Shown: piece by piece, positions 1-46,950 of the stretch
How positions within the stretch are numbered: position 1 is the first letter of the stretch
Layout of the letters: each line of letters starts with the position of its first letter
Assembly: GCA_009691715.1 (NCBI GenBank)
Contig: SIAN01000016.1
Span: 389-64,388 of the forward strand
DNA: 64,000 nt
Source: Planctomycetota bacterium
GTDB lineage: Bacteria > Planctomycetota > B15-G4 > SIAN01
Direction: 5' to 3'
The notes under the pieces: model-generated
The model's database searches: none
What the model was told of the DNA's origin: nothing
What the model saw: the letters and a program-made list of their open reading frames with translations, nothing else
Position numbers and translations under genes: made by a program

Positions 1-987
1 TGCTTCCCCTACGGCGGCTTCCACGCCGAGCGCGTGAAGCTCGCGGTCTATCGACCAAGCTGGCTCGACGAGGAGCGGGTGACTTTTACGCTTCAGGCGG
101 CCCGCGTGGCAGCGAGTCTCGCACCGGCCGGCTCGGTCGTGCCGATCTCCACGCTCGCCGGCTCGTGCAAGGAGTTCGGTGGTAGTGATGCGATCGATGC
201 CGCGATCGCCCGCAACCTCGCGCGAGTCGCCGCCGAGCTCGCGACACTGCGCGCCGAAACCGGGCGCGAAATCGTGCTCTGCCTTGAACCAGAACCGTTC
301 ACGACGCTTGAAACCAGCGCTGAAGCGGTTGCATTCTTCCGGGAGCATGTCCACTCCCGCGCCACTCGCGCGGCATTCGTCGCTGCCGGTGGATCGAGCA
401 TCGACGCCGATGATGCGCTCACCCGCCACGTGGGCGTCTGCTTCGACGCGTGCCATCAGGCGGTCGAGTTCGAGGAGTCGGCCGCGGCCCTTGATCGATT
501 GATCGCTGGCGGCGTGCGAATCGGCAAGCTGCAGCTGTCGAATGCGCTGGCGATCCGGCCGGAGATCGATCGCGCGGCCACGCTTGCCGAGCTTTCGTCG
601 TTCGTTGAGCCACGTTGGCTCCATCAAGCGCTCCTTCGCGCGCCGGATGGGAGGATCGATCGGCACCTCGACTTGGCCGCGGGGATGACTGCGCTGTCGA
701 GCGCCTCGCCAGGCACCGAGATGCGGGTCCACTACCATGTGCCGATCGATCGATCGGCGTTGGGCGTCCTCGCCACCACCCGTCGCGAACTTGGCGAAGC
801 CGTCACTGCAGCGTTGGCGACACGGGCGACGGACTGCCTCGAAGTCGAGACTTACACGTTCCCTTCGCTGCCAAAAGTCGCAGAGCAGCGCCCGCTGGTC
901 GAAGCGCTGATCGGGGAGCTTCGATTCGCACGCCGGCTGATTGACGAAAGTGAGCCGATGTCGACCCATCGCGATTTAGAATCATGA
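1..987 (+). CDS. eboE: EboE-like TIM-barrel sugar-phosphate isomerase/epimerase family protein (5' end outside window)
   Basis: Frame 1 is open from nt 1 (CFPYGGFHAERVKLAVYRPSW...), upstream of the GTG at 34 used by the ORF track. FPYGGFH..VK..VY.P.W and ..ISTL.G.. resemble EboE family motifs from memory. TGA stop at 985-987. Confidence 0.6.
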   Translation, partial: CFPYGGFHAERVKLAVYRPSWLDEERVTFTLQAARVAASLAPAGSVVPISTLAGSCKEFGGSDAIDAAIARNLARVAAELATLRAETGREIVLCLEPEPFTTLETSAEAVAFFREHVHSRATRAAFVAAGGSSIDADDALTRHVGVCFDACHQAVEFEESAAALDRLIAGGVRIGKLQLSNALAIRPEIDRAATLAELSSFVEPRWLHQALLRAPDGRIDRHLDLAAGMTALSSASPGTEMRVHYHVPIDRSALGVLATTRRELGEAVTAALATRATDCLEVETYTFPSLPKVAEQRPLVEALIGELRFARRLIDESEPMSTHRDLES

Positions 988-1201
988 ACATCGACGTTGC
1001 GATGCCGCGGGATGTAGTCGAGGCGGCGGATCGCGAGTCGTCCAACAGCGCGCTGTCACGAGTTTCCAGACGCCGGGTCACGAACCAACCGTCGACTGCT
1101 ATGAACGGATGCCAGATTCGGTCGATCCTCCGGTCGGCGCTGCGGCAAACGCGGTCGGTCGCGTTCTTTCGCTCGGGCAAATCACTCCAGGAGCCAATGT
1201 C

Positions 1202-1279
1202 ATGCGGAGATTGTTCATGAGCGCCGCGATCTCGGCAATCGCTGCGTTCGCGCTCGCACCCGACCTCAGCGGTGGCTGA
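1202..1279 (+). other. 25-codon signal-peptide-like ORF (MRRLFMSAAISAIAAFALAPDLSGG) ending at TGA 1277-1279, in frame with the 1325..2011 ORF; possible true N-terminus via UGA recoding
   Basis: ATG 1202 lies 8 nt after CAGGAG (1188-1193). Same frame (frame 2) as 1325..2011 with no other stop in between. Paralogous copy at 2421..2498. Confidence 0.5.
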
Positions 1280-1286
1280 TGCGGTG

Positions 1287-1309
1287 GCGGGGGCGCCGGA
1301 GGCGCCCGC
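1287..1309 (+). promoter_or_regulatory. GC-rich bulged hairpin starting 8 nt after TGA 1277-1279 (candidate SECIS-like or recoding element)
   Basis: Hand-folded: 1291-1297 pairs with 1301-1307, GG bulge at 1289-1290, 1287-1288 pairs with 1308-1309, G-rich apical loop (GGA or CGGAG). Confidence 0.3.
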
Positions 1310-1324
1310 GGAGGTGGTGGTGGG

Positions 1325-2011
1325 ATGCGAAGCGGTGGTGGCCTGTCACGACAGGGCACTTCAAGCGTCGCGCGACTCCAGATGAAGTGGGAGACGCCAA
1401 AACTCGACCTTTACGACGGCGTCGATCAGGAGAACTTCTTCTCGGTGCTGCCAGATGATTTCGCGGCCGCTGGACAACCGCTGATCGTGATGCTCGGCAG
1501 CGACCAGCCGGAAGCCGCGCAGAAGATCACCGATCTCGAGACGAAGATCTTCGGCGACGAGAACGTGGCGGTCGGTGCCCGGCTGTTCCGCGCAGTTCGC
1601 CTGAAGGGCGACAAAATTACGAAGAGCCACGCGTTCTGGAACACCATCGGCGGGAAAGAGCTTCCGCGCGTGGTGATCATCGATGCGACCGGCCGCAAGG
1701 CGGGCGATCTCGAAGGTGGCGACCTGTCGGCTTCGAGCCTCTTCAAGGTGATGAAGAAGGCAGCGTCGAAGACGTACAAGACCGACCTCGACAAGGTGGT
1801 CAAGTCGACGCGGGAACTGCTCGACGAGATGGACCAGATCGAGGCGAAGCAGAAGCTGCTTTTGGAGCAGAAGAAGACGGCGAAGGGCGGCAAGATCCTG
1901 CAGATCGCCGCAGAGGAGGAGTCGCTCGCGAAGGCGTTGAAGAACGTCCAGACGCGCGACGCCGAGTTGCTGAAGAAGTACGGCGACGATCGCAAGGTGA
2001 CGAAGGGTTGA
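1325..2011 (+). CDS. Conserved hypothetical protein, paralog A: alpha/beta domain (possibly thioredoxin-like, no CxxC) plus Lys/Glu-rich C-terminal coiled coil
   Basis: ORF track 228 aa. Alignable over its whole length with 2523..3167 (KWETPKLDLYDG vs KWDDPKFNTYDG; both end ..DRKVTK[GA]). High GC3. Homology starts near 1382; the true start may be 1202 via UGA recoding. Confidence 0.85.
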   Translation: MRSGGGLSRQGTSSVARLQMKWETPKLDLYDGVDQENFFSVLPDDFAAAGQPLIVMLGSDQPEAAQKITDLETKIFGDENVAVGARLFRAVRLKGDKITKSHAFWNTIGGKELPRVVIIDATGRKAGDLEGGDLSASSLFKVMKKAASKTYKTDLDKVVKSTRELLDEMDQIEAKQKLLLEQKKTAKGGKILQIAAEEESLAKALKNVQTRDAELLKKYGDDRKVTKG

Positions 2012-2061: not shown

Positions 2062-2098
2062 GCGGGGCGTCGCATGACTTGCGACGCCCCGCTTTTTT
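2062..2098 (+). terminator. Rho-independent terminator after paralog A
   Basis: gcggggcgtcgca / tgcgacgccccgc stem (about 13 bp) followed by TTTTTT. Confidence 0.8.
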
Positions 2099-2288
2099 CT
2101 CGTTCGACCACCGCTCGGCGCCGTTCGCCGCGGGGATGGATCGGATTGTCATCCGAAATATCAATACAAGACGTCGAGAATGCGAGTTCCGGCGCACTGC
2201 GTTACGAGGGCCGGATCCGCATCCGATCCGCGCCGCCGCGAGACCTGTTCAAAAGATTTCAGTCACAGGACTTGCAACGTTTCAGCGT

Positions 2289-2303
2289 TGGCGGCGTAAT
2301 TGC
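2289..2303 (+). promoter_or_regulatory. Possible sigma54 (-24/-12) promoter upstream of paralog B
   Basis: TGGCGGCGTAATTGC: GG and GC at the canonical spacing of TGGCACG-N4-TTGC. About 118 nt upstream of ATG 2421. The -24 half deviates from consensus (GG instead of AC). Confidence 0.3.
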
Positions 2304-2420
2304 CGACCGTGCGAGGGGTGCGAGCGGGGACCGGCGTTCCGGTCCGTCGTCCGTGTACGCCGGGGATCGTCCTCAGGACTGCAACTCGGGACTTCTACAG
2401 AATTTCAGGAGTCGACTTCG

Positions 2421-2498
2421 ATGCGGAGCTTCGTGTTGGCCGGTGCGATGGCGGTCATTGCCGCCCTCGCGATCACGCCTGACCTCAAAGGTGGCTGA
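2421..2498 (+). other. 25-codon signal-peptide-like ORF (MRSFVLAGAMAVIAALAITPDLKGG) ending at TGA 2496-2498, in frame with the 2523..3167 ORF; possible true N-terminus via UGA recoding
   Basis: ATG 2421 lies 9 nt after CAGGAG (2406-2411). Frame 3, same as 2523..3167. Read through, the junction is DLKGG-[TGA]-GGGRCGAS-MARIEYKW. Confidence 0.5.
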
Positions 2499-2510
2499 GG
2501 CGGCGGACGC

Positions 2511-2532
2511 TGCGGCGCCAGTATGGCGCGCA
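2511..2532 (+). promoter_or_regulatory. Bulged hairpin 12 nt after TGA 2496-2498 (candidate bacterial SECIS-like element)
   Basis: Hand-folded: 2511-2513 pairs with 2530-2532, bulged G2514, 2515-2519 pairs with 2525-2529, 5-nt loop AGUAU containing GU. Layout resembles the minimal E. coli fdhF SECIS as I remember it. Confidence 0.4.
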
Positions 2533-3167
2533 TCGAGTACAAGTGGGACGATCCGAAGTTCAACACCTACGACGGGCTCAATCTCGAGAGCCTCTACTCG
2601 GCACTTCCCGAGCAGTACAAAGTGGCCGGCAAGCCGACGCTCGTCTTCATGACCAGCGATCTTGCTGACGACGCGCAGTACATGAAGAACGTTGACGCGA
2701 CGACGCTGATGGACGAGAACATCCAGATTGGCGCCGGCATGTTTCAGCAGATGAAGATCAACGGGAACAAGATCAAAGAGAACAACCCGTTCTGGAAGAT
2801 CCTCGGCGGCAAGCAGTTGCCGCGGATGGTTGTCGTCGATGCAGCTGGCGCAAAGGTCGGTTCGGTCGAAGGCCAGGACATTTCGCCGTCGAAGGTGTTC
2901 GCGCTCATGAAGCGCGGCGCGAGCAAGATCTACAAGACTGACCTCGAGACGATCGTCAAGGAATCCAAGACGATCCTGACTGAGATCGACCAGATCGAGG
3001 CGAAGCGCTCCGCGCTTGAGACCAAGAAGTCGAAGTCGACCGCGAACAAGGGCGCGGAGTGGGCCAAGGAAGAGAAGGTCCTGAACGAGCAGATGAAGGC
3101 TGTCGAGGCGCGCGATCTCGCGTTGAAGAAGAAGTGGAACGAGGATCGGAAGGTCACGAAGGCCTGA
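2523..3167 (+). CDS. Conserved hypothetical protein, paralog B: alpha/beta domain (possibly thioredoxin-like, no CxxC) plus coiled coil
   Basis: ORF track 214 aa. Paralog of 1325..2011. High GC3. TGA stop. Confidence 0.85.
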   Translation: MARIEYKWDDPKFNTYDGLNLESLYSALPEQYKVAGKPTLVFMTSDLADDAQYMKNVDATTLMDENIQIGAGMFQQMKINGNKIKENNPFWKILGGKQLPRMVVVDAAGAKVGSVEGQDISPSKVFALMKRGASKIYKTDLETIVKESKTILTEIDQIEAKRSALETKKSKSTANKGAEWAKEEKVLNEQMKAVEARDLALKKKWNEDRKVTKA

Positions 3168-3225
3168 TCGATCGAGTCGAGTGCCGAGACGCCCCGCAGC
3201 TCTCAGCGCAACCAGCAAGCTGATC

Positions 3226-3271
3226 GAAAACGACACAGCCCGGGCGGAAACGCCCGGGCTGTGTCGTTTTC
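3226..3271. terminator. Perfect 21-bp hairpin with GAAA tetraloop (A-run / T-run arms, potentially a bidirectional terminator)
   Basis: gaaaacgacacagcccgggcg-gaaa-cgcccgggctgtgtcgttttc, read directly. Lies 59 nt after the paralog B stop. Confidence 0.85.
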
Positions 3272-3435: not shown

Positions 3436-4578
3436 GTGTTCGTCTTGAGATCGCGAATGGCCACTACGCCTTCAATCAAGCGCACGGTCGCCTTCGCGCC
3501 CTCGCCGGGAACCGTGGAGGCAGCGGCGCTCGATGCTCCGAGCTCGGCGACAGCGGCAAAGCTTTCGCGCGAGCCGGCCGATCGACGATTCGTCCGCGCC
3601 GTGATGATCGACTTGGCGGGGCGCTCACCGCTTGAGGTCGAATGGACTGCGGCGAACGGCAAGCCGCGCGGTGAGTGGGTCCACATGGTGGCGCGGAGCA
3701 TCGCTGCCGCCGAGAGCTTCTATGAAGAAGAGCTCTTCTACTTCCTGCTGATCGACAACTTCCGGCCGTCAACGGACGCCTTCATCGAAATCCCGCAGAT
3801 GTTGGTCGAGCACAAGATCTCGACGCGCGAGATGCTCCGGCAAATTGTGTCGAGCCAGTTCTTCAACTCCCGCAACCCTGGCAACGACACCTTCGTCACG
3901 GTCGTGCTCGAACAGTTGCTTGGCTTCACGGTGCAAAAGGAGCCGGCGGTACTCGATGCTGGCAAGCGGATGTACGACGGGTACACGGCCAACTTCCTGG
4001 GCAAGTCGGGATCAAGTCAGGCTGATCTAGTGAGGATCGCGGTCGAGCACTTGAGCCTTGAGTCGTGCTTCCTCTCCCGACGATTCACTTCGATCTTCGT
4101 CGATGATCCGCCGAAGAAAAGGCTCGCTGCGGACGCCGCGCGGCTGCGAGCCGATCCGCTTGCATGGTCGGAGATCGTTGCCGGCTGGATCAACTCGCAG
4201 GCTTACGACGAACGCCTCGCCAAACCGCGTCCGAAGAGTGATCGCGTCTTCGTGCGATCGCTCTACGCCGACCTGTTCGGCCGAGTGCCGGACTACCAAG
4301 AGTTCCGGCGCTGTCGAAACGCGCTGCTGGCGCTGTCGGACTCGCGGCCGCTCCGCTCCGTCCTGATCAAGTTGATGCTCGACTCCGATGCGGCGGATGC
4401 CCTTGCCGCCGCGGCGGTCGATCGCAATGGCTACGTGCGTGAACGATTCCTGCAGTTCCTGGGACGCGAACCGACGCAAGGCGAGAGCTCGGCCTTCGTG
4501 CGCGAGCTCGGCGATGGCGCGAATCCGAAGCTGCTGCTACGCGCGCTCCTTACCCATTCCGAGTACCAGAGCTACTGA
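3436..4578 (+). CDS. Hypothetical protein with repeated helical L(F/Y)xxLxGRxP motifs (DUF1800/DUF4214-like), partner of the downstream DUF1501-like gene
   Basis: ORF track 380 aa. Motifs VRSLYADLFGRVPDYQEF and RERFLQFLGREPTQGE. Start uncertain (GTG 3436 or ATG 3457). Confidence 0.7.
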   Translation: MFVLRSRMATTPSIKRTVAFAPSPGTVEAAALDAPSSATAAKLSREPADRRFVRAVMIDLAGRSPLEVEWTAANGKPRGEWVHMVARSIAAAESFYEEELFYFLLIDNFRPSTDAFIEIPQMLVEHKISTREMLRQIVSSQFFNSRNPGNDTFVTVVLEQLLGFTVQKEPAVLDAGKRMYDGYTANFLGKSGSSQADLVRIAVEHLSLESCFLSRRFTSIFVDDPPKKRLAADAARLRADPLAWSEIVAGWINSQAYDERLAKPRPKSDRVFVRSLYADLFGRVPDYQEFRRCRNALLALSDSRPLRSVLIKLMLDSDAADALAAAAVDRNGYVRERFLQFLGREPTQGESSAFVRELGDGANPKLLLRALLTHSEYQSY

Positions 4579-4602
4579 GTCGAACTGACGAGGAGGCTTC
4601 CG

Positions 4603-5766
4603 ATGGGACAGCGCAACTTCGATCCAGTCACGCGACGCGGCTTCCTCAAGGCAGGCGCGGCGATCGCGGGTGCCGCGGCGCTCCAAGGGCCGCTGCTTGG
4701 CGCTCTCGGACCGACGTCCTCCTCCAAGACCAAGCGCGTGCTTCTGGTGCTCTTTGCCGGCGGAGTCCGCAGCAAGGACACGATCGGCACGCCTGCGAAT
4801 GTCCCGAATCTGATGCGGCTCGCGGAGAAGGGCATCGTGTTGCCGAATTGCAGGTCGGCCAACCTCGGTCATTACGGCGCGTCGCTCTCGATCCTGACCG
4901 GGGTCCCGGAGTACATGGGGATCCGCGAGAACTCACGCGGCTACAACCCAACGATTTTCGAGTACGTCCGCAAGGAGCTGACGCTGCCTGCGAGCGGCGC
5001 GTGGCTGTCGGCGAACAATGGGTCGCAGGGAGTCAACTTCGCCTACGGTCTGAACCGGCAGTGGGGCGCCCCTTACGGCGCCAACGTCATCGACGGCGAC
5101 GGGATCTTCAACCAGGAGTTCCGAGAGGTCATCGGCCAGTTCGGGACGCCGCGCGCCGATTCGGCGAGTGACGCCGATGCGATGGCTCGGTTGCGTGGTG
5201 CGATCGAGCAGAAAGGCGACGGCAAGGCGGTGAACGACGAGGCGACCGCCGCGCGCGTCGAGAAGTACATCGTCGACGAACTGACCAAGAGTGAGACGGC
5301 AAGCCTTACCGGGCCGGGCGCGGGCGACGCCAAGGCGCTGCGCATCGCGGGGAACATCCTGCAGATCTTCAAGCCGACGCTCACGTGCGTCTCGCTCACC
5401 AACGCCGATGTCGCGCATGGCTCGTACAACGCTTACGTCGACGTCATCAAGCGCAACGACCAGGAACTTGGACGCATTCTCGACGCCGTGCAGCAGGACG
5501 CGGGGCTGCGCGACTCGACCTCGGTTTTCGTGGTACCTGAATTCGGTCGTGACAAGAACCTGAATCAGCGCAATGGTCTCGACCACGGCGACGGCTCCGA
5601 GGAGCTGAACAGGGTGGCCTGCGTCGCATGGGGCCCCGATTTCAAATCAGGGAAGACGATCACCACCGACTGCGACACCATTGACCTCTGCCCGACGATC
5701 TGTCGCATGCTCGGAGTCGAGGCGCCGCTGGCGCGTGGCAAGATCCTGCCGCGATTGCTCGGCTGA
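4603..5766 (+). CDS. DUF1501-like (sulfatase/alkaline-phosphatase superfamily) protein with twin-arginine signal
   Basis: GAGGAGG lies 7 nt before the ATG. N-terminus ..VTRRGFLKAGAAIAGAAALQG is a Tat motif. C-terminal ..NGLDHGDG.. is typical of DUF1501 (from memory). Confidence 0.75.
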   Translation: MGQRNFDPVTRRGFLKAGAAIAGAAALQGPLLGALGPTSSSKTKRVLLVLFAGGVRSKDTIGTPANVPNLMRLAEKGIVLPNCRSANLGHYGASLSILTGVPEYMGIRENSRGYNPTIFEYVRKELTLPASGAWLSANNGSQGVNFAYGLNRQWGAPYGANVIDGDGIFNQEFREVIGQFGTPRADSASDADAMARLRGAIEQKGDGKAVNDEATAARVEKYIVDELTKSETASLTGPGAGDAKALRIAGNILQIFKPTLTCVSLTNADVAHGSYNAYVDVIKRNDQELGRILDAVQQDAGLRDSTSVFVVPEFGRDKNLNQRNGLDHGDGSEELNRVACVAWGPDFKSGKTITTDCDTIDLCPTICRMLGVEAPLARGKILPRLLG

Positions 5767-5777
5767 GCGGCGCCACA

Positions 5778-8750
5778 ATGCGCCGGTTCTTGTTGCTGCT
5801 GCGTGCGCTCGCCGGTGTGCTCACTGTCGTCGCCGCGCTCGGAGGCGCGCTGTCACGGGCGTCGCTGGCGTCGCCGGCGATGCCGATTCAGGCAGGGCCG
5901 GAGGGCTGTCTGCAATGCCATGTAGGTATCGAGTCGATGCACCCTTGGCACGAGCTCTCCTGCACGGCGTGCCACGGCGGCGATGCGAAGGCGGTTCGCA
6001 AGGAGCAGGCGCACGTCCGCCCGCATGTCGCCCCGCCCCACGATGAGCGTCTGTTGCCGCGCGACTTCGACCCGGCTTGGGTGCAGTTCAAGAACCCGAG
6101 CGACCTGCGCATCGTCACGGGCACGTGCGGCGCGTGTCACACCGCGAGCTGCGAGGACCTGTTCAAGTCGCTCCACTGCACGACCGCCGGCCACCTGTCG
6201 GACGGCCTCTACGAGAACGGATTGACGAAGGAGCGGCGCACCCGCTACTCGATCTTCGCGGTGAAGGACGGCGATGGTCGCATTGGCCGGAACGGATTCG
6301 CGGAGTTTCCCGCCTTCCCCGCCAGCGACGACCGCGCGCGAAGTGGAGAGCTCGCCGGCCACGTCGCCGACCTCGGCCGCAAGAGCTGCATGCAGTGCCA
6401 TCTCTGGAGCAACGGCACCGCCGTTCGCGGGCGCCTCGGTCAGGACGGCAACTACCGCGGCAGCGGCTGTTCCGTCTGCCACGTCACCTACGCCGAGGAC
6501 GGCCTGTCGCGCAGTGACGACCCGACCGTCGATCGCTTCGAGCCTGGCCATCCGGAGCGCCACGCGATGGTCAAGGCGCCGCCGACTCAGACCTGCGTGC
6601 GCTGCCACTTCGGCGATGCCTCGATCGGGCTCAACTTTCGCGGGCTGGCGCAACTGGTCCCCGGGATGCCGGCGGGGCCCGAAGTGGCGGGCACGACGCA
6701 CGCATTGCAGAACGGCGTGTTCTATTCCAACGACCCGAAGGTGACGCCTCCCGACGTGCACCACGAGCGCGGCATGCACTGCGTCGACTGCCATACGGTG
6801 CGCGACGTGATGGGCGACGGCGAGCTCTACGGGTTCATGGAGCACGCGGTCGAGATCGAGTGCACCGACTGCCACGGCAGCTTCGATGAAGTGAGTCGCA
6901 TGACGACTTCCCGGGGTCGCAAGCTCGATCATCTGCACGCGAAGGACGGGTTGATCTGGCTCGAGTCGAAGGTGGACGGGAAGAGGCACTACATTCCGCA
7001 GGCCACCCATGTGATTGATCCCGCGCGCCCGGAGTTCAACGCGAAGGCCGCGCGCGCGATGACGCCGAAACACGCGCGGCTCGAGTGCTACACCTGCCAC
7101 GCCGGATGGAACGCCAACTTCCTTGGCTTCCACTTCGATCGCAATGAGTCGTTCTCGCAGCTCGACATCATCTCCGGCGAGCGCACCTCCGGCCGCTGCT
7201 CGACTCAGGAGAAGGTCTTCGCGACTTACCGGCAGTTCTACGTCGGGTGGAATGACGAGGGGATGGTGGCGCCCTATCTGGTCGGCTTCTCGACCATGGG
7301 GAGCGTGCACGGCCGTGACGGCGCGCTCTCCATCGATCAGGCGTTGCCGGTCACCGCGTCTGGAAAATCGGGCATGACCATGGTGCACCACCAGCTCCAT
7401 TCGACGCGTGGACAGGCGCGCGGCTGTGTCGAGTGCCACCGGTCGCCAGCGACGCTTGGCCTCGGTTCGCCGAGCTTTGGGCTCGCGCGCGAAGTCGCAG
7501 CGATCCTCGATGTCCGCGGCGTCCACCTCGTCGCCGTGGATCGCGAGGCGCTCGACGGATCGACGCCGCTCGCGTCCGTGCCGCTGTCCGGTGGAGTTGC
7601 CGTGGCGGCGCGCTGTGACGATCTGCAGGGACGATTCGAGACGCTCTACGTTGCGCTGCAGGGCGCGGGCATCGCCGTGATCGACGCACGTAAGCCGGCC
7701 TTTCCGGAAGTGATCGCCTTCATCGACTGCGACGACCCGCGCGATGTGCTTGTCCGCGGGGAGATGCTGTTCGTTGCCGACGGCAGGGGGGGCGTGAAGC
7801 TGTTCGATGTCGCCGATCCGCGCCGGCCGCGGCTGCTGGTTCGCCTGCCGACCAAGGAGGCGCGCTCGCTCGATCTCGCGTGGCCACACCTCTATGTCGC
7901 CGACGGCGCGGCCGGCATTAAAATCTTCGACGTCGCGACTCCCGGGAAGGTCGACCTTGCCGGCCACCTCGACCTGAACGGCGATCCCGGCTACGACGAC
8001 GACGCGCACGCGGTCAAGGTGATGTTCCAGTACTCACGGCCTGACGACGGTTTTGGTGAACGCAGCACGGCGCGCAAGTTGGCCGTCATCGCGGGCGGAT
8101 TGCAGGGCTACTTCTTGTTCGACGTGACCGAGGTCGGCGAGCCAGAACGGTTGTTCCCTCCGGGCGGAACGCCAATCCCGAGGACGACGACGGCTTCCCC
8201 GCCGGAGAGCACCAATCGAGTGCTCGACGTGCAGGTCTTGTCGCGGTTCGACCTCGGCAGCCCGGGCGGCGATATCCCGACTGAAGAACACGACTACGCG
8301 TTGTTCGCGGTGCAACCGCTCGAGGAGACGATGACCCCGGGGGCGCTCGCGATCGTGCGCATCACCGATCCCGAGGCGCCGAAGAGCGTCGCCGCCACGC
8401 CGATGCCTGACGGCGCTTTTCGCCTCGCAACGGCCGCGTGGTACCAACCGCCATTCCTCCGCCGCTACGCGCTCGTCGCCGGACGCAACGCGACGGCCGT
8501 CGTCGAAACCTCCGCGAGCGACAAGCCCGCCTTGGTCGGGACGCTGTTCGGCGAGGCGTTGCGCGTGCGCGACGTCGTGGTGGAGGAGTTTCCGCTCGAT
8601 CGGATGGTCGACGAGGCCGGCAAGACGCTGAAGGACATCTCCCACGAAGGGTCGCGGTATTTCGATCTCGCTGAGATCACGCGTCTTCTGCACGTCCCGC
8701 TCGCGGCGGAGGATCGTCTCGGGTTTCGCTTCGAGGAGGGCGGACGATGA
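5778..8750 (+). CDS. Secreted decaheme c-type cytochrome fused to C-terminal LVIVD-repeat (beta-propeller) domain
   Basis: Signal peptide. Ten CxxCH motifs (CLQCH, CTACH, CGACH, CMQCH, CSVCH, CVRCH, CVDCH, CTDCH, CYTCH, CVECH). Then repeats such as GGVKLFDVADPRRPRLL, AGIKIFDVATPGKVDL and GIAVIDARKPAFPEVI. Confidence 0.9.
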   Translation: MRRFLLLLRALAGVLTVVAALGGALSRASLASPAMPIQAGPEGCLQCHVGIESMHPWHELSCTACHGGDAKAVRKEQAHVRPHVAPPHDERLLPRDFDPAWVQFKNPSDLRIVTGTCGACHTASCEDLFKSLHCTTAGHLSDGLYENGLTKERRTRYSIFAVKDGDGRIGRNGFAEFPAFPASDDRARSGELAGHVADLGRKSCMQCHLWSNGTAVRGRLGQDGNYRGSGCSVCHVTYAEDGLSRSDDPTVDRFEPGHPERHAMVKAPPTQTCVRCHFGDASIGLNFRGLAQLVPGMPAGPEVAGTTHALQNGVFYSNDPKVTPPDVHHERGMHCVDCHTVRDVMGDGELYGFMEHAVEIECTDCHGSFDEVSRMTTSRGRKLDHLHAKDGLIWLESKVDGKRHYIPQATHVIDPARPEFNAKAARAMTPKHARLECYTCHAGWNANFLGFHFDRNESFSQLDIISGERTSGRCSTQEKVFATYRQFYVGWNDEGMVAPYLVGFSTMGSVHGRDGALSIDQALPVTASGKSGMTMVHHQLHSTRGQARGCVECHRSPATLGLGSPSFGLAREVAAILDVRGVHLVAVDREALDGSTPLASVPLSGGVAVAARCDDLQGRFETLYVALQGAGIAVIDARKPAFPEVIAFIDCDDPRDVLVRGEMLFVADGRGGVKLFDVADPRRPRLLVRLPTKEARSLDLAWPHLYVADGAAGIKIFDVATPGKVDLAGHLDLNGDPGYDDDAHAVKVMFQYSRPDDGFGERSTARKLAVIAGGLQGYFLFDVTEVGEPERLFPPGGTPIPRTTTASPPESTNRVLDVQVLSRFDLGSPGGDIPTEEHDYALFAVQPLEETMTPGALAIVRITDPEAPKSVAATPMPDGAFRLATAAWYQPPFLRRYALVAGRNATAVVETSASDKPALVGTLFGEALRVRDVVVEEFPLDRMVDEAGKTLKDISHEGSRYFDLAEITRLLHVPLAAEDRLGFRFEEGGR

Positions 8751-9994
8751 GCCGGTGGGCGCAGGCTGTGTCGTCTCTGGCGGTTGTGGCGCTCTTCGTC
8801 CCGTTGGCTTCGGCGCAGGCCGGCAGTGGTGCCGCGAAGCAGTTCCTTGCCAGCCTCGACCTTGACGGCAACGGCTACGTCGGCCGCGATGAGTGGAGCG
8901 GCAGCGGCGCGACGTTTGTCCTTCTCGACGTCGACCTCGACGGTTGGCTCACCGGTCCGGAGCTCACGAAGTCGACCAAGGCGGGCGCGCGCGCCGTCGA
9001 AGCTCCCGATCCGAGTCGCCTCGCGGTGGCGATCGGCGACCTGCCCGATCTCGTCGAGCCCTTCCGTCGCAGCTGCCTCGCCTGCCACGATCAGCAGCGG
9101 GTGGAGCGGGCGGCGAAGGACGCGAAGGGTTGGTCCGAGACCGTGCGCAAGATGCGTGAGAAGAAGGAGGCGTCGATCACGGAGAAGGACGCGCGCGCGA
9201 TCGTCGAGTGGCTTTCGGACCAACGCGCGCGGGTTGCGCTGTCGCTGGCAAGCTTCGGCACCGGCGATCCGGTCGGCGCGTGGGGCATGGTGATCGGCGG
9301 GGGCGACCTCCACTTGTTCGACCGCGACCGCAACGGAAAGCTCGAGGGTGGCGAGTTGGCGCGGCTGATCCACCAGCGCGCTGATCTCGACCGGGACCAA
9401 CTCCTGTCGCCGGGCGAGCTAGCGCTGCTGCCGCTCGCGGTCGACCGCCGCGCGCTGTTCCAGAAGCTCGATCGCGACAAGAACGGCGGAGTCAGCCTGA
9501 AGGAGCTCGGGATTCCAGCGCCGCTCCTCCAATTGTTCGACCGAAACGCCGACCAGCAGCTCGAGCGCGGCGAGCTGCCGAGTTCGCGCCGCTACGGCGG
9601 GCCGATCTCGATGATCCTGATCGGTGACGCGAAGACGGCGCTCGATCTCCTCGACCGGGATCACGACAAGAGCCTCTCCGCCGCCGAGCTCGCTCGCTTT
9701 CCGCGGACGCTCATGCGCTTCGACGGCGACAACAACGCCAGCCTCGATCCGAAGGAGCTTGAGACCGCGGTCACAGCTGGTCGTGCCGAAGGCCCTCTCG
9801 CGGCCTTCGACGACTTCTTCACCCGCTACGACCTCGACGGTGATGGCAGCGTCGCACGCCGCGAGTTTCCGGGTCGAGACGCCGCGTTCGCCCGCCTCGA
9901 TCTCGACGGCGACGGCGTGCTGACGTCGCGCGACGCGCAAGGCGGCATGACCCGAGTCGACTTCACGCCCGAGGCGTTGCGCTGGCGCGATTGA
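8747..9994 (+). CDS. Secreted multi-EF-hand calcium-binding protein with one c-type heme motif
   Basis: ATGA overlap with the upstream stop. Signal peptide (..LASAQAG). Ten DxDx(D/N)G..-type 12-residue loops (DLDGNGYVGRDE, DRDRNGKLEGGE, DLDGDGSVARRE...). One CLACH motif. Confidence 0.85.
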   Translation: MSRWAQAVSSLAVVALFVPLASAQAGSGAAKQFLASLDLDGNGYVGRDEWSGSGATFVLLDVDLDGWLTGPELTKSTKAGARAVEAPDPSRLAVAIGDLPDLVEPFRRSCLACHDQQRVERAAKDAKGWSETVRKMREKKEASITEKDARAIVEWLSDQRARVALSLASFGTGDPVGAWGMVIGGGDLHLFDRDRNGKLEGGELARLIHQRADLDRDQLLSPGELALLPLAVDRRALFQKLDRDKNGGVSLKELGIPAPLLQLFDRNADQQLERGELPSSRRYGGPISMILIGDAKTALDLLDRDHDKSLSAAELARFPRTLMRFDGDNNASLDPKELETAVTAGRAEGPLAAFDDFFTRYDLDGDGSVARREFPGRDAAFARLDLDGDGVLTSRDAQGGMTRVDFTPEALRWRD

Positions 9995-11154: not shown

Positions 11155-11277
11155 GCCGCGAACGTCGGCGCTCATCCGACTCCGGGGAGAGCCCGGCAGG
11201 CCGACGCCTTGCCGACTCCGGAAGTGGCGTTATAGAAAGCGGCAATGCCTGGTTAGGGATTGCGCGGAGTCGCACCG

Positions 11278-12174
11278 ATGGTGCCCCCCAACCCGTCGTG
11301 CCTGCGTGCCTTGGTTTCGCTGCTCTCTGACGAGAACCCGCGCGTCTGCGCTCAGGCGCGGCGGGCGTTGCGTGACCACGGCCAGCGTTCGTTCGCCTAC
11401 CTCGATGAGGCGATCGATGGCGCCGACGCGCGCCTGCGCGGCCGAGCGCGGCTCTTCCGCGAGGAATTGCGTGGTGGACTGCTCGAAGTCGAGATGCGTC
11501 GGCTCGGTGAGCGCATCGATGACGATCCCGAGGCGCTCGAGGCGGGATGTCTGCTGTTGGCGCGGACGCGTCGTTTCGAGCTCGACGATCGCTCGATGAC
11601 GGCGGGGCTCGACGCGATGGCTGATGACCTGGGCGCGCGCCTCGGCAGCGAACGGGAGCCGGCGATCGTCGTCGACGTGATGACCCGATTCTTGTCGTGG
11701 GAGCTAGGCTTCCAAGGCAACCAACGCAACTACTATGACCCCGAAAACTGGTTCCTCGACCGGGTTCTCGACCGCCGTCTCGGGATCCCGATCTCGCTCT
11801 GCACGGTCTACCTGTTCGTTGCCCGCCGCCTCGACCTGCCGCTGATCGGCATCGGGTTGCCAGGGCACTTCATCCTGAAGCACGCCGTCGCTGAGCCTTC
11901 GATCTTCATCGACCCGTTCCACGGCGGCCGTGTGTTCGGTGAAGCCGAGTGCCTGCGTTTCCTGGAGGAGCGGTCAGTCGGGTACGACCCGGGCATCCTT
12001 CTGCCGATGTCGGACGGCGCGATGCTGCTGCGGATGATGCGCAACCTCATCCAGAGCTATCGCAATCGTGGCGATCACGGCCGCGTTGTGCTCCTGCAAC
12101 GGATGAAGAGCATGCTGGTTGGCGAAGAGGTTTCCGGATCCGAACTCGGAGCCGGCGGGGAGCAGGAGCGCTGA
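11278..12174 (+). CDS. SirB1/YchA-like transglutaminase-like (Transglut_core2) family protein
   Basis: NYYDPENWFLDRVLDRRLGIPISLCTVYLFVARRLDLPLIGIGLPGHFILK motif. GGAG lies 8 nt before ATG 11278 (track start TTG 11260). Confidence 0.75.
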   Translation: MVPPNPSCLRALVSLLSDENPRVCAQARRALRDHGQRSFAYLDEAIDGADARLRGRARLFREELRGGLLEVEMRRLGERIDDDPEALEAGCLLLARTRRFELDDRSMTAGLDAMADDLGARLGSEREPAIVVDVMTRFLSWELGFQGNQRNYYDPENWFLDRVLDRRLGIPISLCTVYLFVARRLDLPLIGIGLPGHFILKHAVAEPSIFIDPFHGGRVFGEAECLRFLEERSVGYDPGILLPMSDGAMLLRMMRNLIQSYRNRGDHGRVVLLQRMKSMLVGEEVSGSELGAGGEQER

Positions 12175-12675: not shown

Positions 12676-13035
12676 ATGACCATGTCTCCCCCGATCCTAG
12701 TCCTGGTCCAAGACCTCTTCTTCCGCGCGAAGATCGAGGCAACAGCGCGCGCTGGCGGTTGGCCGGTGTGGTGCGTGCACGATGTCGCGTCGTTGCCGGA
12801 CGCCGTCGCATGCCGGGCCTGTCTGATCGATCTCGAGTCGGCCGGTGCTGATGCGCTCGCGCGGTTGCCCGGGATCGCCGCGCGGGTGCCGACGATCGCG
12901 TTCGCGTCGCATGGCCGGATCGACCTGCTCGAAGCCGCGCGAGCAGCCGGTTGCCGCGAGGCGCTGCCGCGCTCGCGGCTCGCCGCCGAGCTTGCGCGCG
13001 TACTCGGTTCGCTCGCTGCAGGCGGCGATCCGTGA
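12676..13035 (+). CDS. Degenerate CheY-like receiver-fold protein
   Basis: ILVLVQD...CLIDLES...TIAFASHG... layout of a receiver domain with non-canonical acidic pocket and Lys. 119 aa. Confidence 0.55.
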   Translation: MTMSPPILVLVQDLFFRAKIEATARAGGWPVWCVHDVASLPDAVACRACLIDLESAGADALARLPGIAARVPTIAFASHGRIDLLEAARAAGCREALPRSRLAAELARVLGSLAAGGDP

Positions 13036-14174
13036 CCGCGACCCGATGGTCGACGGCGGTGGCGTTGGCCGCCGCTGGTGTCGTCGGGGGGTGCGCGAAG
13101 GGCTCGTCCGGCAGCTCGAGCGAGGGCGCGCCGTCGGTGGAGCATTCGCTCGCGGTTCCGGACGAGACTGCGCCATCGGCTGTCGCGCCGCCGCCTAGCG
13201 GTCCCGCTTCTTCGCCGCGCGGGCGCTTCGTCAACAGCGACGCCGAACCTTTTGCCTTCGCGGTCGAACCGGACTCGATCGAACTTGGCGTGCTGCGTCC
13301 CGATGAGGATTCGGACTGCGCGTTCGAGATCGTCAACCGCGACTCGCGCCCGCTGCGGCTCGTCAACATCGACGGATCCTGCGACTGCGTCGCGTTCGAA
13401 TACACCCGCGGTGACCTGCCACCGGGGACGCGCCGCAAGGTGGTGGTAAAGGTCAAGGCGGAGAATCGCGGCAACAAGGTGCTGACCGTGTTCGTGCAAG
13501 CGAACGATCGGGTCGTGACCACCCACGAATTGGCGATCCGATACTCGATCGAGCCCGCCCTCGTGTTCGAACCGCCGCGTGCCGACTTTGGCCAGCGGGT
13601 GATCGGTTCTCCCGGCCGTCTTGAGGTGCGCGTCCGCTATCGATTGCCGATCGGGTGCGAGCCACTGACGCTCGCGCCGAAGTGGGTGACTGAAGTCCCG
13701 GCGACGTTCGAGCTTGGCGGCGCACGAGCGGAGCCCTCGGGTGGCGGCCTGGTCGATTTCGATCAACCGCTCGTGCTCGTGCTCGAGGCGAGCCACGCGT
13801 TCAAGTCCTTCAAGTCGGAACTGCTCTTCGAGGGTGTCGGCCATCGCCGCTCGGCGCTTCCCGTGACCGGCTCCGTCCACGCCGAGACATGGCTCGATCC
13901 GGCGGAGCTTCACCTCGGAGTGACTGAGGTGGGAAAGCTTCGCCAGGGGGCCGTCCGGCTACGCTGGACCGTGGAGCCGGTGAATGCCGATGAGATCACC
14001 TGTTCCGTCCCGGAACTGAGGGCGCAGGCGTCGCCGGAACGCGGTGCGCGCGCCCTTCGGATCCAGGTCGAATTCGAGCCGAAGGTCTCTGGCGAGTTCG
14101 CCGGAGACGTCACGATCCGCACCAAGCAGGCAGAGGAACCTCTGGTCCTCCGCGTGCGCGCCAAGGTCCGCTGA
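13032..14174 (+). CDS. DUF1573-like (Ig-fold) lipoprotein, paralog 1
   Basis: GTG 13032 overlaps the upstream TGA (GTGA). Lipobox VVGGC. FEIVNRDSRPLRLVNIDGSCDCV resembles the DUF1573 signature (..N.G..PL.I..V..SCGC). Track start 12951 rejected. Confidence 0.75.
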   Translation: MTATRWSTAVALAAAGVVGGCAKGSSGSSSEGAPSVEHSLAVPDETAPSAVAPPPSGPASSPRGRFVNSDAEPFAFAVEPDSIELGVLRPDEDSDCAFEIVNRDSRPLRLVNIDGSCDCVAFEYTRGDLPPGTRRKVVVKVKAENRGNKVLTVFVQANDRVVTTHELAIRYSIEPALVFEPPRADFGQRVIGSPGRLEVRVRYRLPIGCEPLTLAPKWVTEVPATFELGGARAEPSGGGLVDFDQPLVLVLEASHAFKSFKSELLFEGVGHRRSALPVTGSVHAETWLDPAELHLGVTEVGKLRQGAVRLRWTVEPVNADEITCSVPELRAQASPERGARALRIQVEFEPKVSGEFAGDVTIRTKQAEEPLVLRVRAKVR

Positions 14175-14182
14175 GGAAAGAC

Positions 14183-15346
14183 ATGCGAATGCCCGGTTTG
14201 ATGCTCTCGGTGGCCGTGTTGGTCGCGGTGTCGCTCATTTCCGCAGGTTGCGACGAGCCCTCGCCGCGGTCGGCGACGCCGGCTTCAGTGGCGACGCCCG
14301 CATCTGCTGCGCCGACGGCCGTGGGCGATCCGGCAGCCGCGCGCGCTTCGCTGCCAGCTGCCCTGGTACCCGCCGGCGCCGAGCAAGGCGCCGGCGCGCC
14401 GGCGAAGCCCTGCTTCGAAGTGTCCCCGCCGGGTTTCGAGCTGAACGTCGTCGAGCAGAACTCGGTGCACGACCTCGAATTCTCCGTCATCAACTGCGGC
14501 GACCGGCCGTTCAACGTCGCCTACGTCACGACCGAGTGCAAATGCATGACGCTCGATGTCGACCGCGCGATGTTGAAGCGCGGCAACTCGGTGAAGGTCA
14601 AGCTGCGCGTCACGGCGACCGCCTCGAATGAGCGCAAGACGGCGGCGATCCTCCACCTCTCCGACCCGGCGAAGTCGAAGGTCCGAGTCGAAGTGCACTA
14701 CGCCGTCGTGCCTGAAATCCTGGTCGAGCCTCGCGGTGTCGGCTTCGGTCGGGTCGAGAGCGGCAAGACAGCCGAAGTCTCCTTGCGGGTGACGATGCAC
14801 CTGCCGGGGTCGATCAAGGAAATCCCGAAACTCGAGCCATTCATCGCCCATGACCTGCCGATCAAACTGAGATTCGACGAGCCGAGCATCACGACGTCGG
14901 CAGGCGGGATGCGCGACTGGGTGGCGACGCTCCATGTCGAGCTGGACGGGAAGGAGCCGATCGAGCAGTTCCTGACCCAGTTGGTGTTCAGGCCGACGGA
15001 GAATCTCACGTTCCGCGAACTCGCGGTGCGGGTGACCGGCGAAGTGGTGCCGGCTTGGTATTTCGAGCGCGGCGTCGTCGCGTTCGGCTCGGTCAGCGCC
15101 GGCGAGGCGGTCGAGAAGGAGATGCGTTTCTACTACCCCGGCCCCGAAGTACCCGCGGTGCTGTCCCTCGAGACTGACGTCGCCGGACTCGAGGTCACGA
15201 GCGCGCCGGACGCTGAGCAGCGCTGCCACGTGCTCAAGCTCAAGCTCGTCGCCAAGGAGTCGGGGAAGATCGAGGGGGTCGTGAAGCTGACCACCTCGCT
15301 CAGTTCGGAACCAGCGGTGCTGCGGATCACTGCACGCGCGAAGTGA
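14183..15346 (+). CDS. DUF1573-like (Ig-fold) lipoprotein, paralog 2
   Basis: Lipobox LISAGC. FSVINCGDRPFNVAYVTTECKCM. Alignable with 13032..14174. Confidence 0.8.
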   Translation: MRMPGLMLSVAVLVAVSLISAGCDEPSPRSATPASVATPASAAPTAVGDPAAARASLPAALVPAGAEQGAGAPAKPCFEVSPPGFELNVVEQNSVHDLEFSVINCGDRPFNVAYVTTECKCMTLDVDRAMLKRGNSVKVKLRVTATASNERKTAAILHLSDPAKSKVRVEVHYAVVPEILVEPRGVGFGRVESGKTAEVSLRVTMHLPGSIKEIPKLEPFIAHDLPIKLRFDEPSITTSAGGMRDWVATLHVELDGKEPIEQFLTQLVFRPTENLTFRELAVRVTGEVVPAWYFERGVVAFGSVSAGEAVEKEMRFYYPGPEVPAVLSLETDVAGLEVTSAPDAEQRCHVLKLKLVAKESGKIEGVVKLTTSLSSEPAVLRITARAK

Positions 15347-41836: not shown

Positions 41837-42001
41837 TCGCCACGTGATCTGAATGGCCCGCGCGCTGCGCTCTGCGCGACGCTCGCGCTACTATCCCCCG
41901 CGGTTGGGCGGCCCTGGGAGGGGACGGTCGATCCTGCTCCAAGCGCCTCATTTCCTGTAGCGGGAAGGGGGCACCATGGCCGTTCGCTGCGAGTACCTTG
42001 C

Positions 42002-44953: not shown

Positions 44954-46950
44954 CCCTGGGTATTGCGACGACGGCGGGATTCCTCGGCGGCTGGACCACC
45001 GGCTGCATCGTGCTGCTGATCGGAGTCTGGCTTTTCCTGGCGCTGCTCGGCATCCGGAACGGCCGCTTCCCGTGGCGCGTGGTCGGAGGCGGGACGTTCA
45101 TCGTCGGCTCGGCGCTGTGGCTCGGGATGCATCCGGCGCATGCGAGCGCGTGGGAGGTAGACGCCGGCTATCTCGGCTTCGCCGCGGAGTCGTCTCTGCT
45201 GCAGCCCGGCGGGTCGCAGGTGGCGCAGAACCTGCTGGCGGCGTTGCTGGCCGCGTGCTCGGTGCTCGGTCTGTTGGTCGCGATCGATTGGCTGCCGCTG
45301 ATGCCGTTTGCGCCGCTGCTCGGCCACGTCGAAGCGCGGCTCGTGCGCGCCGCAGACGCGCGAGCCGCAGCTCGTGCCGCAGCGGCCGCAGCCGCTCGCC
45401 AGCAGGCGTTGGCAACGGCGATCAGGCCGGGGTCCACCGCCGCCACCATGGTTCTGCACTCGACGGCGACGATCGATTCGCCGACGCTGCAGGCCACACC
45501 CGCTGCGCCGCCGCTGTCGCTGGCCGACGCTGCCGCGGTCGTGTCAGCCGGGGTCGCGATCGCGAACGTTGAACTCGACGCCGTGTCGTCCGCAGAGGTC
45601 GCCGACGCCATCGAGACGGAGAATCTGGAGCCGCGACCGACCGTCACCAGTCTTTGGGATCGCTTCAAGCCGCGCGCTTCGGTTTCGCCGGAGGCGCCCC
45701 CGGACGAGAACGCGGTGGACAACGAGGCCGGGGCGACGGATAACTCCTCGCTTGAATTGGGCGTAAGCCGCGCTGAGGCGGCGCCCTTGACGGATGCTCC
45801 GACCAACTTGGCGATCAAGTCGACCACGGAGCCGCAGGCGCAGATCGAGGCGTCAACGCCTGCGGCGGACCCAGAACAAAAGGACTCTCCTGTGCCCGAT
45901 CACGATCTTGAAGACGAAGTGACGATGCCTTCTGACGCGGAATCCGCGGTGGCGACGATCGATGGAGTTCCGTCGCCGATCGCTGATCGCGACATCGCTG
46001 ATCTTGACAGTGCAGCCGCGAGCGTTGCAGTCCCCGACGTGGCGGTCGGCGAGACGATCGCGCCGCGCCGCAAGAAGAAAGACGACGAGCCCGCCGAGTC
46101 GCCTCCTGAGGAGGAGCCGGGCGAGGGCGACGACAAAGAGGGCGACGACAAAGAGGGCGACGACAAAGAGGGCGACGACAAAGAGGGCGACGACGAGCTC
46201 GAGGAGGATGAGGAAGAGTGGGAGGAAGACGACGACGAAAAGAAGAAGGAGGGCGACGAAGAGAAGGAGGAAGACGAGGACGAGGAGTGGGACGACGACG
46301 AGGAGACGGACGAGCCTGACGACGACGAGTCGGGAGGTGAGGAGGATGACGCGAAGGAAGGGGACGACGCGGACGACGCGGAGGAGGACGACGAGGAGGC
46401 GGACGACGGCGACGACCAGAGTTCGTCGACGGATCCCGTGCCGCAGTCGATCGCCGCTGTTTCCTCTTCGATCGAAGTGGCGCCGTTGATTGAAGTCGCG
46501 CCATCGATCGAAGGCGCGCCGGCTGAGTCGGTCACTGCCGATGTTCCTTCGACGGCGTCCGCACCGATCGTCGAAGTCGTTGCGATCGACACTTCCAGCA
46601 TCGAATTGCCGCTGACCGACGCGCCGGTGATCGAGGTTGCTGCGCCGGTGGCGCGTGCGCCGGTCGCGCCCACGCAGGCGCCGATCTCCCGCCCGCCGCT
46701 CCCGCCGACGCTCTTCGCCGAGCTCCCCGCCGACGAGCGCGAACTCCTCGGCCGCGCGACTGAGCTGCTCCTGCGACTCGAAAGCGTGTCGTTGTCTAAG
46801 CTGCAGCGCGAGCTCGCGATCACCTACTACTCGGCTGCCCGCGTCTTCGAACGGCTGGAGAAGGAAGGCTTCGTGGCGCCTTACACCGGAAGTCTTGCGC
46901 GGCTGGTCAGGATCACACGGACCGAATGGGATGCGCGCCTGCGGGCGTGA
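44950..46950 (+). CDS. Motor-less FtsK-like membrane protein: N-terminal TM segments, very acidic disordered linker, C-terminal FtsK-gamma-like winged helix
   Basis: ATGA overlap with ftsK. 3-4 hydrophobic segments. EGDDK x4.8 and long D/E runs. C-terminus SLSKLQRELAITYYSAARVFERLEKEGFVAPYTGSLARLV aligns to the gamma motif S.LQR...IGY.RA.R....E..G.V. Confidence 0.85.
   Translation: MTLGIATTAGFLGGWTTGCIVLLIGVWLFLALLGIRNGRFPWRVVGGGTFIVGSALWLGMHPAHASAWEVDAGYLGFAAESSLLQPGGSQVAQNLLAALLAACSVLGLLVAIDWLPLMPFAPLLGHVEARLVRAADARAAARAAAAAAARQQALATAIRPGSTAATMVLHSTATIDSPTLQATPAAPPLSLADAAAVVSAGVAIANVELDAVSSAEVADAIETENLEPRPTVTSLWDRFKPRASVSPEAPPDENAVDNEAGATDNSSLELGVSRAEAAPLTDAPTNLAIKSTTEPQAQIEASTPAADPEQKDSPVPDHDLEDEVTMPSDAESAVATIDGVPSPIADRDIADLDSAAASVAVPDVAVGETIAPRRKKKDDEPAESPPEEEPGEGDDKEGDDKEGDDKEGDDKEGDDELEEDEEEWEEDDDEKKKEGDEEKEEDEDEEWDDDEETDEPDDDESGGEEDDAKEGDDADDAEEDDEEADDGDDQSSSTDPVPQSIAAVSSSIEVAPLIEVAPSIEGAPAESVTADVPSTASAPIVEVVAIDTSSIELPLTDAPVIEVAAPVARAPVAPTQAPISRPPLPPTLFAELPADERELLGRATELLLRLESVSLSKLQRELAITYYSAARVFERLEKEGFVAPYTGSLARLVRITRTEWDARLRA
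46126..46197 (+). repeat. 15-nt in-frame perfect tandem repeat (ggcgacgacaaagag, about 4.8 copies; GDDKE)
   Basis: Read directly. Confidence 0.95.

Follow-up and report, generated by a model that had tools for sequence, protein, structure and literature searches.

Does a TGA codon that lies between a signal peptide and a hypothetical protein end translation, or is it decoded as an amino acid? The question is raised by a 64-kb stretch of a metagenome-assembled Planctomycetota genome (contig SIAN01000016.1; 67% G+C), here called the window and numbered from its first nucleotide, which carries two related genes, paralog A and paralog B. In paralog B, an ATG at 2421 opens a 25-codon open reading frame (ORF) for a signal-peptide-like segment. 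The TGA that ends it, at 2496-2498, shares its frame with a 214-codon ORF at 2523-3167, annotated as a hypothetical protein, and there are zero further stops between the two. The initial annotation had proposed that this UGA is recoded locally, either as selenocysteine (Sec) or by programmed readthrough, to yield an exported protein of an uncharacterized family, and the comparison of orthologs reported here supports that proposal. We conclude that this internal stop is very probably decoded as Sec. To the fuller interpretation, that paralog B is a single gene (2421-3167) whose 248-residue precursor would be an exported selenoprotein of thioredoxin fold, with Sec inserted through SelB, we assign a probability of about 0.85.

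The in-frame UGA of paralog B and its relatives

Every feature that the initial annotation had described was found in the sequence: the Shine-Dalgarno sequence, the 25-codon ORF, the in-frame TGA, the junction, the spacing of the Cys and the downstream hairpin (Table 1). Reading through the UGA gives the junction ...PDLKGG-[UGA]-GGGRCGAS-MARIEYKW, with a Cys 5 residues past the UGA. The n-region, hydrophobic core and A-L-A motif of the signal peptide are all kept in the orthologs of paralog B, and signal peptidase I probably cuts after A15-L16-A17, approximately 8 residues before the proposed Sec.

A protein search with the 214-aa ORF returned 43 clusters at 51-100% identity. Nearly all have been called as proteins of 210-217 aa that start with MAR, two are approximately 160 aa in length, and all are either unnamed or labelled "hypothetical"; the identical match amongst them comes from a Planctomycetes metagenome-assembled genome. 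The comparison was extended to DNA at 8 loci from Planctomycetota/Phycisphaerae genomes (down to 35% identity) and 20 metagenome loci. All 28 of these B-type loci, like the window itself, carry TGA in frame at the homologous codon (24 distinct sequences; 35-82% protein identity), and neither another stop (TAA or TAG) nor a sense codon occurs there. Each B-type locus encodes a signal peptide, then TGA, then GG(G)RC(G/S)AS in frame, and TGA also stands at this site in L034, L035 and L037, all three of which belong to a distant subfamily.

The same arrangement is seen in paralog A, which lies 1.2 kb upstream of paralog B and whose signal peptide ends in PDLSGG before an in-frame TGA. The orthologs of paralog A at 11 further loci have TGA at the homologous site without exception (11/11). 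The linkers that follow the UGA in A-type genes come in seven different lengths, from 27 to 36 residues, and every one is in frame. In two of these orthologs (L018A and L028A), there is zero Met between the UGA and the folded domain.

Current gene calls describe paralog B differently, as two cistrons: a 25-codon leader that stops at TGA 2496 and a 214-aa protein that starts at ATG 2523, with the hairpin regulating initiation by coupling or occlusion. All 43 database clusters have been called in this way, and ATG 2523 sits in the hairpin loop, where an upstream ribosome could unmask the start. We regard this explanation as very improbable. At the codon called as the start, L007 and L008 have TCG (Ser) and L013 has CTG (Leu), so that it is not a conserved start; since no in-frame ATG, GTG or TTG is found nearby, the downstream domain of these three genes needs read-through of the UGA. 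Nor do the paralog A orthologs have a conserved start. No Shine-Dalgarno sequence precedes 2523, and the GGGRCGAS peptide and its frame are conserved between the TGA and the ATG. Furthermore, a signal peptide without a passenger beside a signal-less thioredoxin-like domain would be biologically senseless. Out-of-frame or variably placed stops and conserved downstream starts, which the initial annotation had set against its own proposal, were looked for in the orthologs, and the opposite was seen.

An error of sequencing or assembly, a pseudogene lesion, or genome-wide decoding of UGA as a sense codon would also leave an internal TGA in a gene; the window does come from a metagenome-assembled genome, and in one family member TGA has been read as Trp by its source. 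Such an origin has scarcely any probability, in our assessment. The same TGA recurs across independently made assemblies of many different samples and sources, and both paralog lineages as well as the distant subfamily carry it. These comparative data effectively refute artefact or decay. Of the 76 open frames in the window that reach 300 codons or more, 58 stop at TGA, as do paralogs A and B themselves. As the initial annotation had argued from this usage, TGA is the normal stop here, so the decoding of UGA 2496 must be local and not the product of a variant code.

Cys-type homologs

When 1.84 billion cluster representatives were searched with a profile, 290 related ones were identified. In many of these, an initial M, V or L leads into A-x-L-x-I-x-W, the residues that lie right behind the hairpin in paralog B, which suggests equally truncated gene calls in those members. 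Other representatives are full length, with a Cys cluster behind the signal peptide, for example GGGCGCCGRSSAA (P0079), DAGCCCGRSAA (P0100) and GEGCACCSRSAAA (P0178). In these Cys-type homologs (P0079, P0193-P0195 and others), the signal peptide, a CGCC, CCC or CxCC cluster and the domain are encoded in one ORF.

A search around P0079 revealed Sec and Cys forms inside one subfamily. The Cys-type loci L038 and L040 have TGC codons in an uninterrupted ORF, whereas the Sec-type loci L034, L035 and L037 have TGA together with a hairpin carrying AGT. By BLASTP, the Sec-type protein of L037 aligns over its whole length, signal peptide to C terminus, with the Cys-type P0195 at 50% identity, with Sec inside the CGCC cluster. 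The two halves that the database calls separate are therefore joined in one ORF in homologs at this level of identity, and with this evidence the annotated two-ORF reading is effectively excluded.

One database entry at first sight offered support for readthrough as Trp, as P0198 (L037, 211-981) has Trp at the Sec column. We rejected it: the DNA has TGA, and the source used a non-standard code in which TGA means Trp, applying it to the internal Sec codon as well as to the stop that ends the gene.

On the contig of P0193, a 209-aa call (5232-5861) lies directly upstream of the 250-aa Cys-type member (6001-6753). The 209-aa call is probably a truncated Sec-type member, and the pair may represent tandem Sec and Cys paralogs of one genome.

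A conserved hairpin behind the UGA

The hairpin of paralog B is formed by the pairs U2511-A2532, G2512-C2531, C2513-G2530, G2514-C2529, C2516-G2528, G2517-C2527, C2518-G2526 and C2519-G2525. A further pair, A2520-U2524, is optional, which leaves a loop of GUA (or AGUAU). The predicted free energy of the element at 2511-2532 is -13.1 kcal/mol (ViennaRNA). The motif GCCAGTNYGGC has a chance expectation of 0.47 per window and, taken by itself, the paralog B site could have arisen by chance. The hairpin is raised above chance because it is conserved across related loci.

Conservation is concentrated in the core of the element, CCA-GUN-(U/C)GG, which is invariant even in relatives of approximately 30% identity. 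The 20 aligned genes all encode the loop Ser by AGT, as do, by eye, all remaining B-type loci; this codon supplies the apical G-U of the hairpin. Elsewhere in the same genes AGT accounts for only 1 of 257 Ser codons, and in nine further window genes for 7%. The distance from the UGA to the hairpin in B-type genes is only ever 9, 12 or 15 nt, values that differ by whole codons. Measured from the U of the UGA, the loop G-U lies 25 nt away in the window (25-26), and 22, 25 or 28 nt away amongst the relatives.

The close B-type orthologs alone show zero covariation in the hairpin because the element is nearly invariant. The distant loci L034, L035 and L037 are more informative: they keep the core CCA-GUN-UGG with an outer stem altered on both strands (CGGCCA/UGGCCG, ACGGCCA/UGGCCGU and GGCGGCCA/UGGCCGCC). 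With these distant members added to the B-type set, 2 compensated pairs were found, and the covariation score was reached by 0 of 500 shuffles. Mean synonymous entropy did not differ between the 12 codons after the UGA and the rest of the gene (0.46 versus 0.48); the RNA signal resides in particular codons rather than in the average.

At the same place, A-type genes carry a hairpin of different sequence, with the pattern GGGCGGC-GGN-GCCGCCC. One A-type hairpin was misaligned by MAFFT and this sequence was excluded from the covariation count. In the remainder, 3 of 7 pairs show compensation and 98% of cells are paired, a score reached by 3 of 500 shuffles. In L016A the stem is kept even though the encoded peptide flips from Gly-Gly-Ala-Ala to Ala-Ala-Gly-Gly. 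Judged from sequence comparison, these three lines of evidence, namely the fixed AGT codon, the stems of the distant members and the paralog A hairpin, point to selection on the RNA.

The initial annotation had noted a resemblance to the SelB-bound selenocysteine insertion sequence (SECIS) of Escherichia coli fdhF, and this was borne out when fdhF was run through the same analysis as a control. In fdhF, the UGA is codon 140 and the loop is GGUC; the G-U lies 22-23 nt from the U of the UGA, and the 5' side of the stem has a bulge. The two elements share a hairpin within the coding sequence approximately 11-13 nt beyond the UGA, a bulge in the 5' strand and an apical G-U. Their sequences are not similar. 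GUA/GUN (3-5 nt) forms the loop in the family described here versus GGUC in fdhF, and the bulged nucleotide is G (A or C in relatives) rather than U. Binding of SelB to the hairpin of this family would be expected from the shared layout.

Selenocysteine or another residue at position 26

The evidence for translation through the UGA is compatible with more than one inserted amino acid. A tRNA that is near-cognate or acts as a suppressor (Trp, Cys, Arg or Gly), stimulated by the hairpin, would place a standard residue at position 26; the codon is flanked by Gly (GG-UGA-GGG), and one alignment sets Sec opposite a Gly of Cys-type homologs. We consider that readthrough of this kind has a slim chance of being correct. 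An apical G-U held in place by the rare AGT codon at fdhF-like spacing is a signature of SelB recognition and not of a generic roadblock. A sense codon for Gly, Trp or Cys is one mutation away, yet 0 of >40 gene copies has one, the sole apparent Trp being the mistranslated TGA of P0198. In addition, the Cys near Sec is kept in every member, as expected of a Sec/Cys redox pair. SelB acting with a SECIS is the only known bacterial system that recodes a specific UGA via a hairpin 10-15 nt downstream.

Several observations weigh against Sec insertion. The energy of the hairpin is unexceptional relative to shuffled sequences, with z-scores of -1.6 for the 26-nt element and approximately -0.2 in a context of 50-80 nt, and because shuffles gave no significance in contexts of 50-100 nt, energy was dropped as an argument. 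Of the bulged hairpin put forward in the initial annotation, the presence and conservation stand, but its stability by itself is not significant at this G+C content. Rfam, searched at gathering and permissive thresholds, gave no SECIS match, only a weak small RNA match at a terminator. GGC (Gly) and GCC (Ala) codons are mutually complementary, and hairpins form in the Cys-type genes too; the CCA-GUN-UGG/AGT signature is absent from the DNA of those genes. The Cys column that matches Sec is ambiguous by one residue, and P0163 reads ...AGAGGLGGGRCGASS..., with an apparent Leu at the Sec column and an N terminus that is not signal-peptide-like.

The machinery for Sec decoding was also not found in the sequences at hand, which would equally suit readthrough with a standard residue. 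No selA, selB or selD domain was detected with Pfam in 48 large open frames of the window, and tRNA scans of the window and of 16 related loci detected neither tRNA-Sec nor any other tRNA. Among 23 planctomycete genomes surveyed in one study, four (Gemmata, Isosphaera and two Pirellula-like isolates) are listed with complete Sec machinery; Phycisphaera mikurensis NBRC 102666 was surveyed and is not among them (PMC4807772). A literature search for selenoproteins in Phycisphaerae returned nothing relevant.

With Sec as the residue at position 26, we propose the following sequence of events. Translation would begin at ATG 2421, behind the CAGGAG Shine-Dalgarno sequence. The hairpin at 2511-2532 would recruit SelB-GTP-Sec-tRNA(Sec) to UGA 2496-2498 through its apical G-U and bulge, at a spacing like that of known bacterial SECIS elements, and Sec would be inserted as residue 26. 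The ribosome would then go on through GGGRCGAS-MARIEYKW to TGA 3165-3167, a stop without such an element behind it. The signal peptide would export the protein, and cleavage at the predicted site would leave Sec approximately 9 residues from the new N terminus, on a flexible Gly-rich arm that also holds the sole Cys. This arm would be joined to a thioredoxin-like domain without a canonical CxxC and to a C-terminal coiled-coil hairpin. Most likely, the Sec/Cys pair would cycle between the selenol/thiol and selenylsulfide states and serve as a periplasmic site for redox reactions or for the handling of chalcogens or metals.

Predicted protein fold and the proposed Sec/Cys arm

Searches of Pfam and NCBIfam with paralogs A and B, both translated across the UGA, and with ten relatives, some of them Cys-type, gave nothing above noise, and a sequence-profile search of the PDB with the protein gave only noise. 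The structure of paralog B residues 27-248 was predicted with AlphaFold2 at a mean pLDDT (per-residue confidence) of 87.6 and a pTM (global confidence) of 0.83. In the model, two long antiparallel helices come after a thioredoxin-like domain of the order beta-alpha-beta-alpha-beta-beta-alpha, and the first eight residues, which form the arm, are disordered. All of the top 50 Foldseek matches have a thioredoxin fold. The best is 1vrs_D, the C-terminal domain of DsbD (E 5e-5, target-normalized TM-score 0.58); Thermus thioredoxin, ERp19/AGR2, DsbH, CcmG and ResA were also matched.

The proteins of this family share predicted export and a thioredoxin-like fold with the DsbD C-terminal domain, DsbH, CcmG, ResA and TlpA. 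Unlike them, they have no CxxC, UxxC or CxxU at the start of helix 1, where paralog B has T-S-D-L-A-D-D, and the folded domain has zero Cys; Sec26 and Cys31 would instead be carried on the N-terminal arm, away from the folded part. The mature protein has a single Cys, which lies 5 residues beyond Sec in paralog B (U-x4-C) and next to it in paralog A (U-C). Further differences are the additional 70-residue coiled-coil hairpin and the lack of a significant thioredoxin match in Pfam or NCBIfam. The Pro that precedes strand 3 is invariant (LPRMVV).

The thioredoxin-like fold is the commonest scaffold of characterized selenoproteins, according to a 2026 review (PMC13188914). The known thioredoxin-like selenoprotein families resemble the family described here in having a single Sec with a nearby Cys, Cys homologs and a SECIS directly after the UGA. 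They differ in the position of Sec, which lies in a UxxC or CxxU within their fold, whereas here it would precede the fold and follow the signal peptide. Amongst the 119 prokaryotic selenoprotein families and subfamilies inventoried in 2026, nearly all of which have a Pfam, NCBIfam or related domain identifier, none is listed with U-x4-C or U-C before the fold and straight after a signal peptide (PMC13188914).

A lipoprotein in which Sec is the lipidated residue was considered and rejected, as no lipobox of the form [LVI][ASTVI][GAS]C was seen by eye right behind the hydrophobic core. Positions -3 to -1 before Sec are K/R-G-G (A-G, C-G or Q-A-D in relatives), and 7-8 polar residues follow the hydrophobic core.

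In five distant members (P0080, P0103, P0118, P0151 and P0157), the motif C-D-E-x(2-3)-C occupies the canonical position of the thioredoxin active site, which paralogs A and B do not have. This sequence pattern suggests that the family descended from true thiol:disulfide oxidoreductases.

The architecture leads us to speculate that Sec sits outside the folded active site, on a flexible arm that is exposed once the signal peptide is cleaved, and that this arm is anchored to a coiled coil and to a thioredoxin-like domain that is catalytically "dead". This would be the first selenoprotein family of its type, a periplasmic selenol "fishing line". We consider this speculation rather unlikely to hold in full. 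If it did, the arm could relay selenium, sulfur or metals, or be a selenylsulfide adaptor for the neighbouring cluster of multihaem cytochrome, DUF1501 and EF-hand proteins.

Genomic context

The coordinates of both paralogs and of the elements around them are given in Table 1. A and B form separate short transcription units, since a strong terminator follows each. Flanked by terminators, the region 2100-3271 is one transcription unit, which holds the 25-codon and the 214-codon ORF of paralog B and a single good Shine-Dalgarno sequence (2406-2411). A weak Rfam match to "P31 sRNA" at 2062-2106 was rejected, as it is merely the terminator hairpin of paralog A.

Table 1. Coordinates of paralogs A and B and associated elements in the window
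Feature	Position	Strand	Description
Paralog A Shine-Dalgarno CAGGAG	1188-1193	+	Same hexamer as paralog B
Paralog A	1202-2011	+	Signal peptide 1202-1276, UGA 1277-1279, adjacent Cys, Gly-rich linker, thioredoxin-like domain, stop 2009-2011
Paralog A SECIS-like hairpin GGGCGCC-GGA-GGCGCCC	1291-1307	+	11 nt past the UGA; -15.9 kcal/mol, z -2.7
Intrinsic terminator after paralog A	2062-2102	+	13-bp stem (2062-2092) and TTTTTT; fold of 2020-2110, z -6.6
Paralog B Shine-Dalgarno CAGGAG	2406-2411	+	9 nt upstream of ATG 2421, the proposed true start of paralog B
Paralog B signal-peptide segment MRSFVLAGAMAVIAALAITPDLKGG	2421-2495	+	25 codons: basic n-region, hydrophobic core, A-L-A motif
Paralog B in-frame UGA	2496-2498	+	Proposed Sec codon, residue 26; ends the 25-codon ORF
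Paralog B remaining coding part	2499-3167	+	Gly-rich arm with C31, thioredoxin-like domain, coiled-coil hairpin, stop TGA 3165-3167
Paralog B SECIS-like hairpin	2511-2532	+	8-9 bp stem, bulged G2515, loop G2521-U2522-A2523; spans codons C-G-A-S-M-A-R
Intrinsic terminator after paralog B	3226-3271	+	Perfect 21-bp stem and T-run; -45.9 kcal/mol, z -11.2

The gene order around the paralogs is conserved in L031 and L032 at 63% identity and partially in L005 at 53%. It consists of a xylose-isomerase-like TIM barrel gene, paralog A, paralog B, a DUF4214/PSCyt2-like gene, a DUF1501/sulfatase-like gene with a twin-arginine translocation (TAT) signal, a gene for a 990-aa multihaem cytochrome, and one for an EF-hand/haem protein. 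The downstream cluster occupies 3436-9994 in the window and 10874-17368 in L031/L032, and its multihaem cytochrome c carries LVIVD repeats. The terminators set A and B apart from this cluster, and distant members of the family instead adjoin genes for lipoyl synthase and 2-oxoacid dehydrogenase. For both reasons, the attempt to derive a function from synteny was given up.

Other candidate selenoprotein genes, which could have been independent evidence of Sec use, were sought in the window, but wherever an in-frame TGA joined two coding-like segments, these turned out to be ordinary neighbouring genes. A tandem DUF1573 pair at 12852-15346 belongs to a listed selenoprotein family (UGC motif), yet has ordinary starts and no in-frame TGA; the second of the two proteins has a lipoprotein-type signal. 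A Transglut_core2 (PF13369) gene is found within a few kilobases of the selenoprotein gene both in the window (11257-12174) and in L008 (7140-8006), in contexts that are otherwise different. A transglutaminase-like gene of a different Pfam family has been reported inside a planctomycete selB-x-selA-selD operon (PMC4807772). The proximity of the Transglut_core2 gene may be coincidence. Elsewhere in the window, at 41837-46950, a full-length FtsK gene (4TM, alpha, motor and gamma domains) is followed by a 691-aa ORF that matches the FtsK gamma domain only.

Implications

The mechanism of decoding proposed for paralog B is the standard bacterial one, and it is the selenoprotein family itself that appears to be new. 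For annotation, this would mean that the 43 clusters of close homologs are truncated and have lost the signal peptide and Sec, so that localization, length and chemistry are wrong in the databases. The starts seen amongst the 290 superfamily representatives suggest that the same truncation is widespread. Two points of method also follow. At high G+C content, a rare codon such as AGT, fixed in the loop, is a sharper signal of a SECIS than folding energy; and translation of TGA as Trp, as in P0198, can mask a selenoprotein and is a trap for screens based on Sec/Cys homology.

For selenium biology, the finding would add one family to the 119 inventoried, with Sec at an unusual position and with tandem Sec paralogs that have two differing SECIS solutions. 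By implication, Planctomycetota of freshwater, soil and groundwater that are related to Phycisphaerae would decode Sec; if correct, the finding would mean that Sec decoding is active in Phycisphaerae, a class for which the literature searched holds no documented case.

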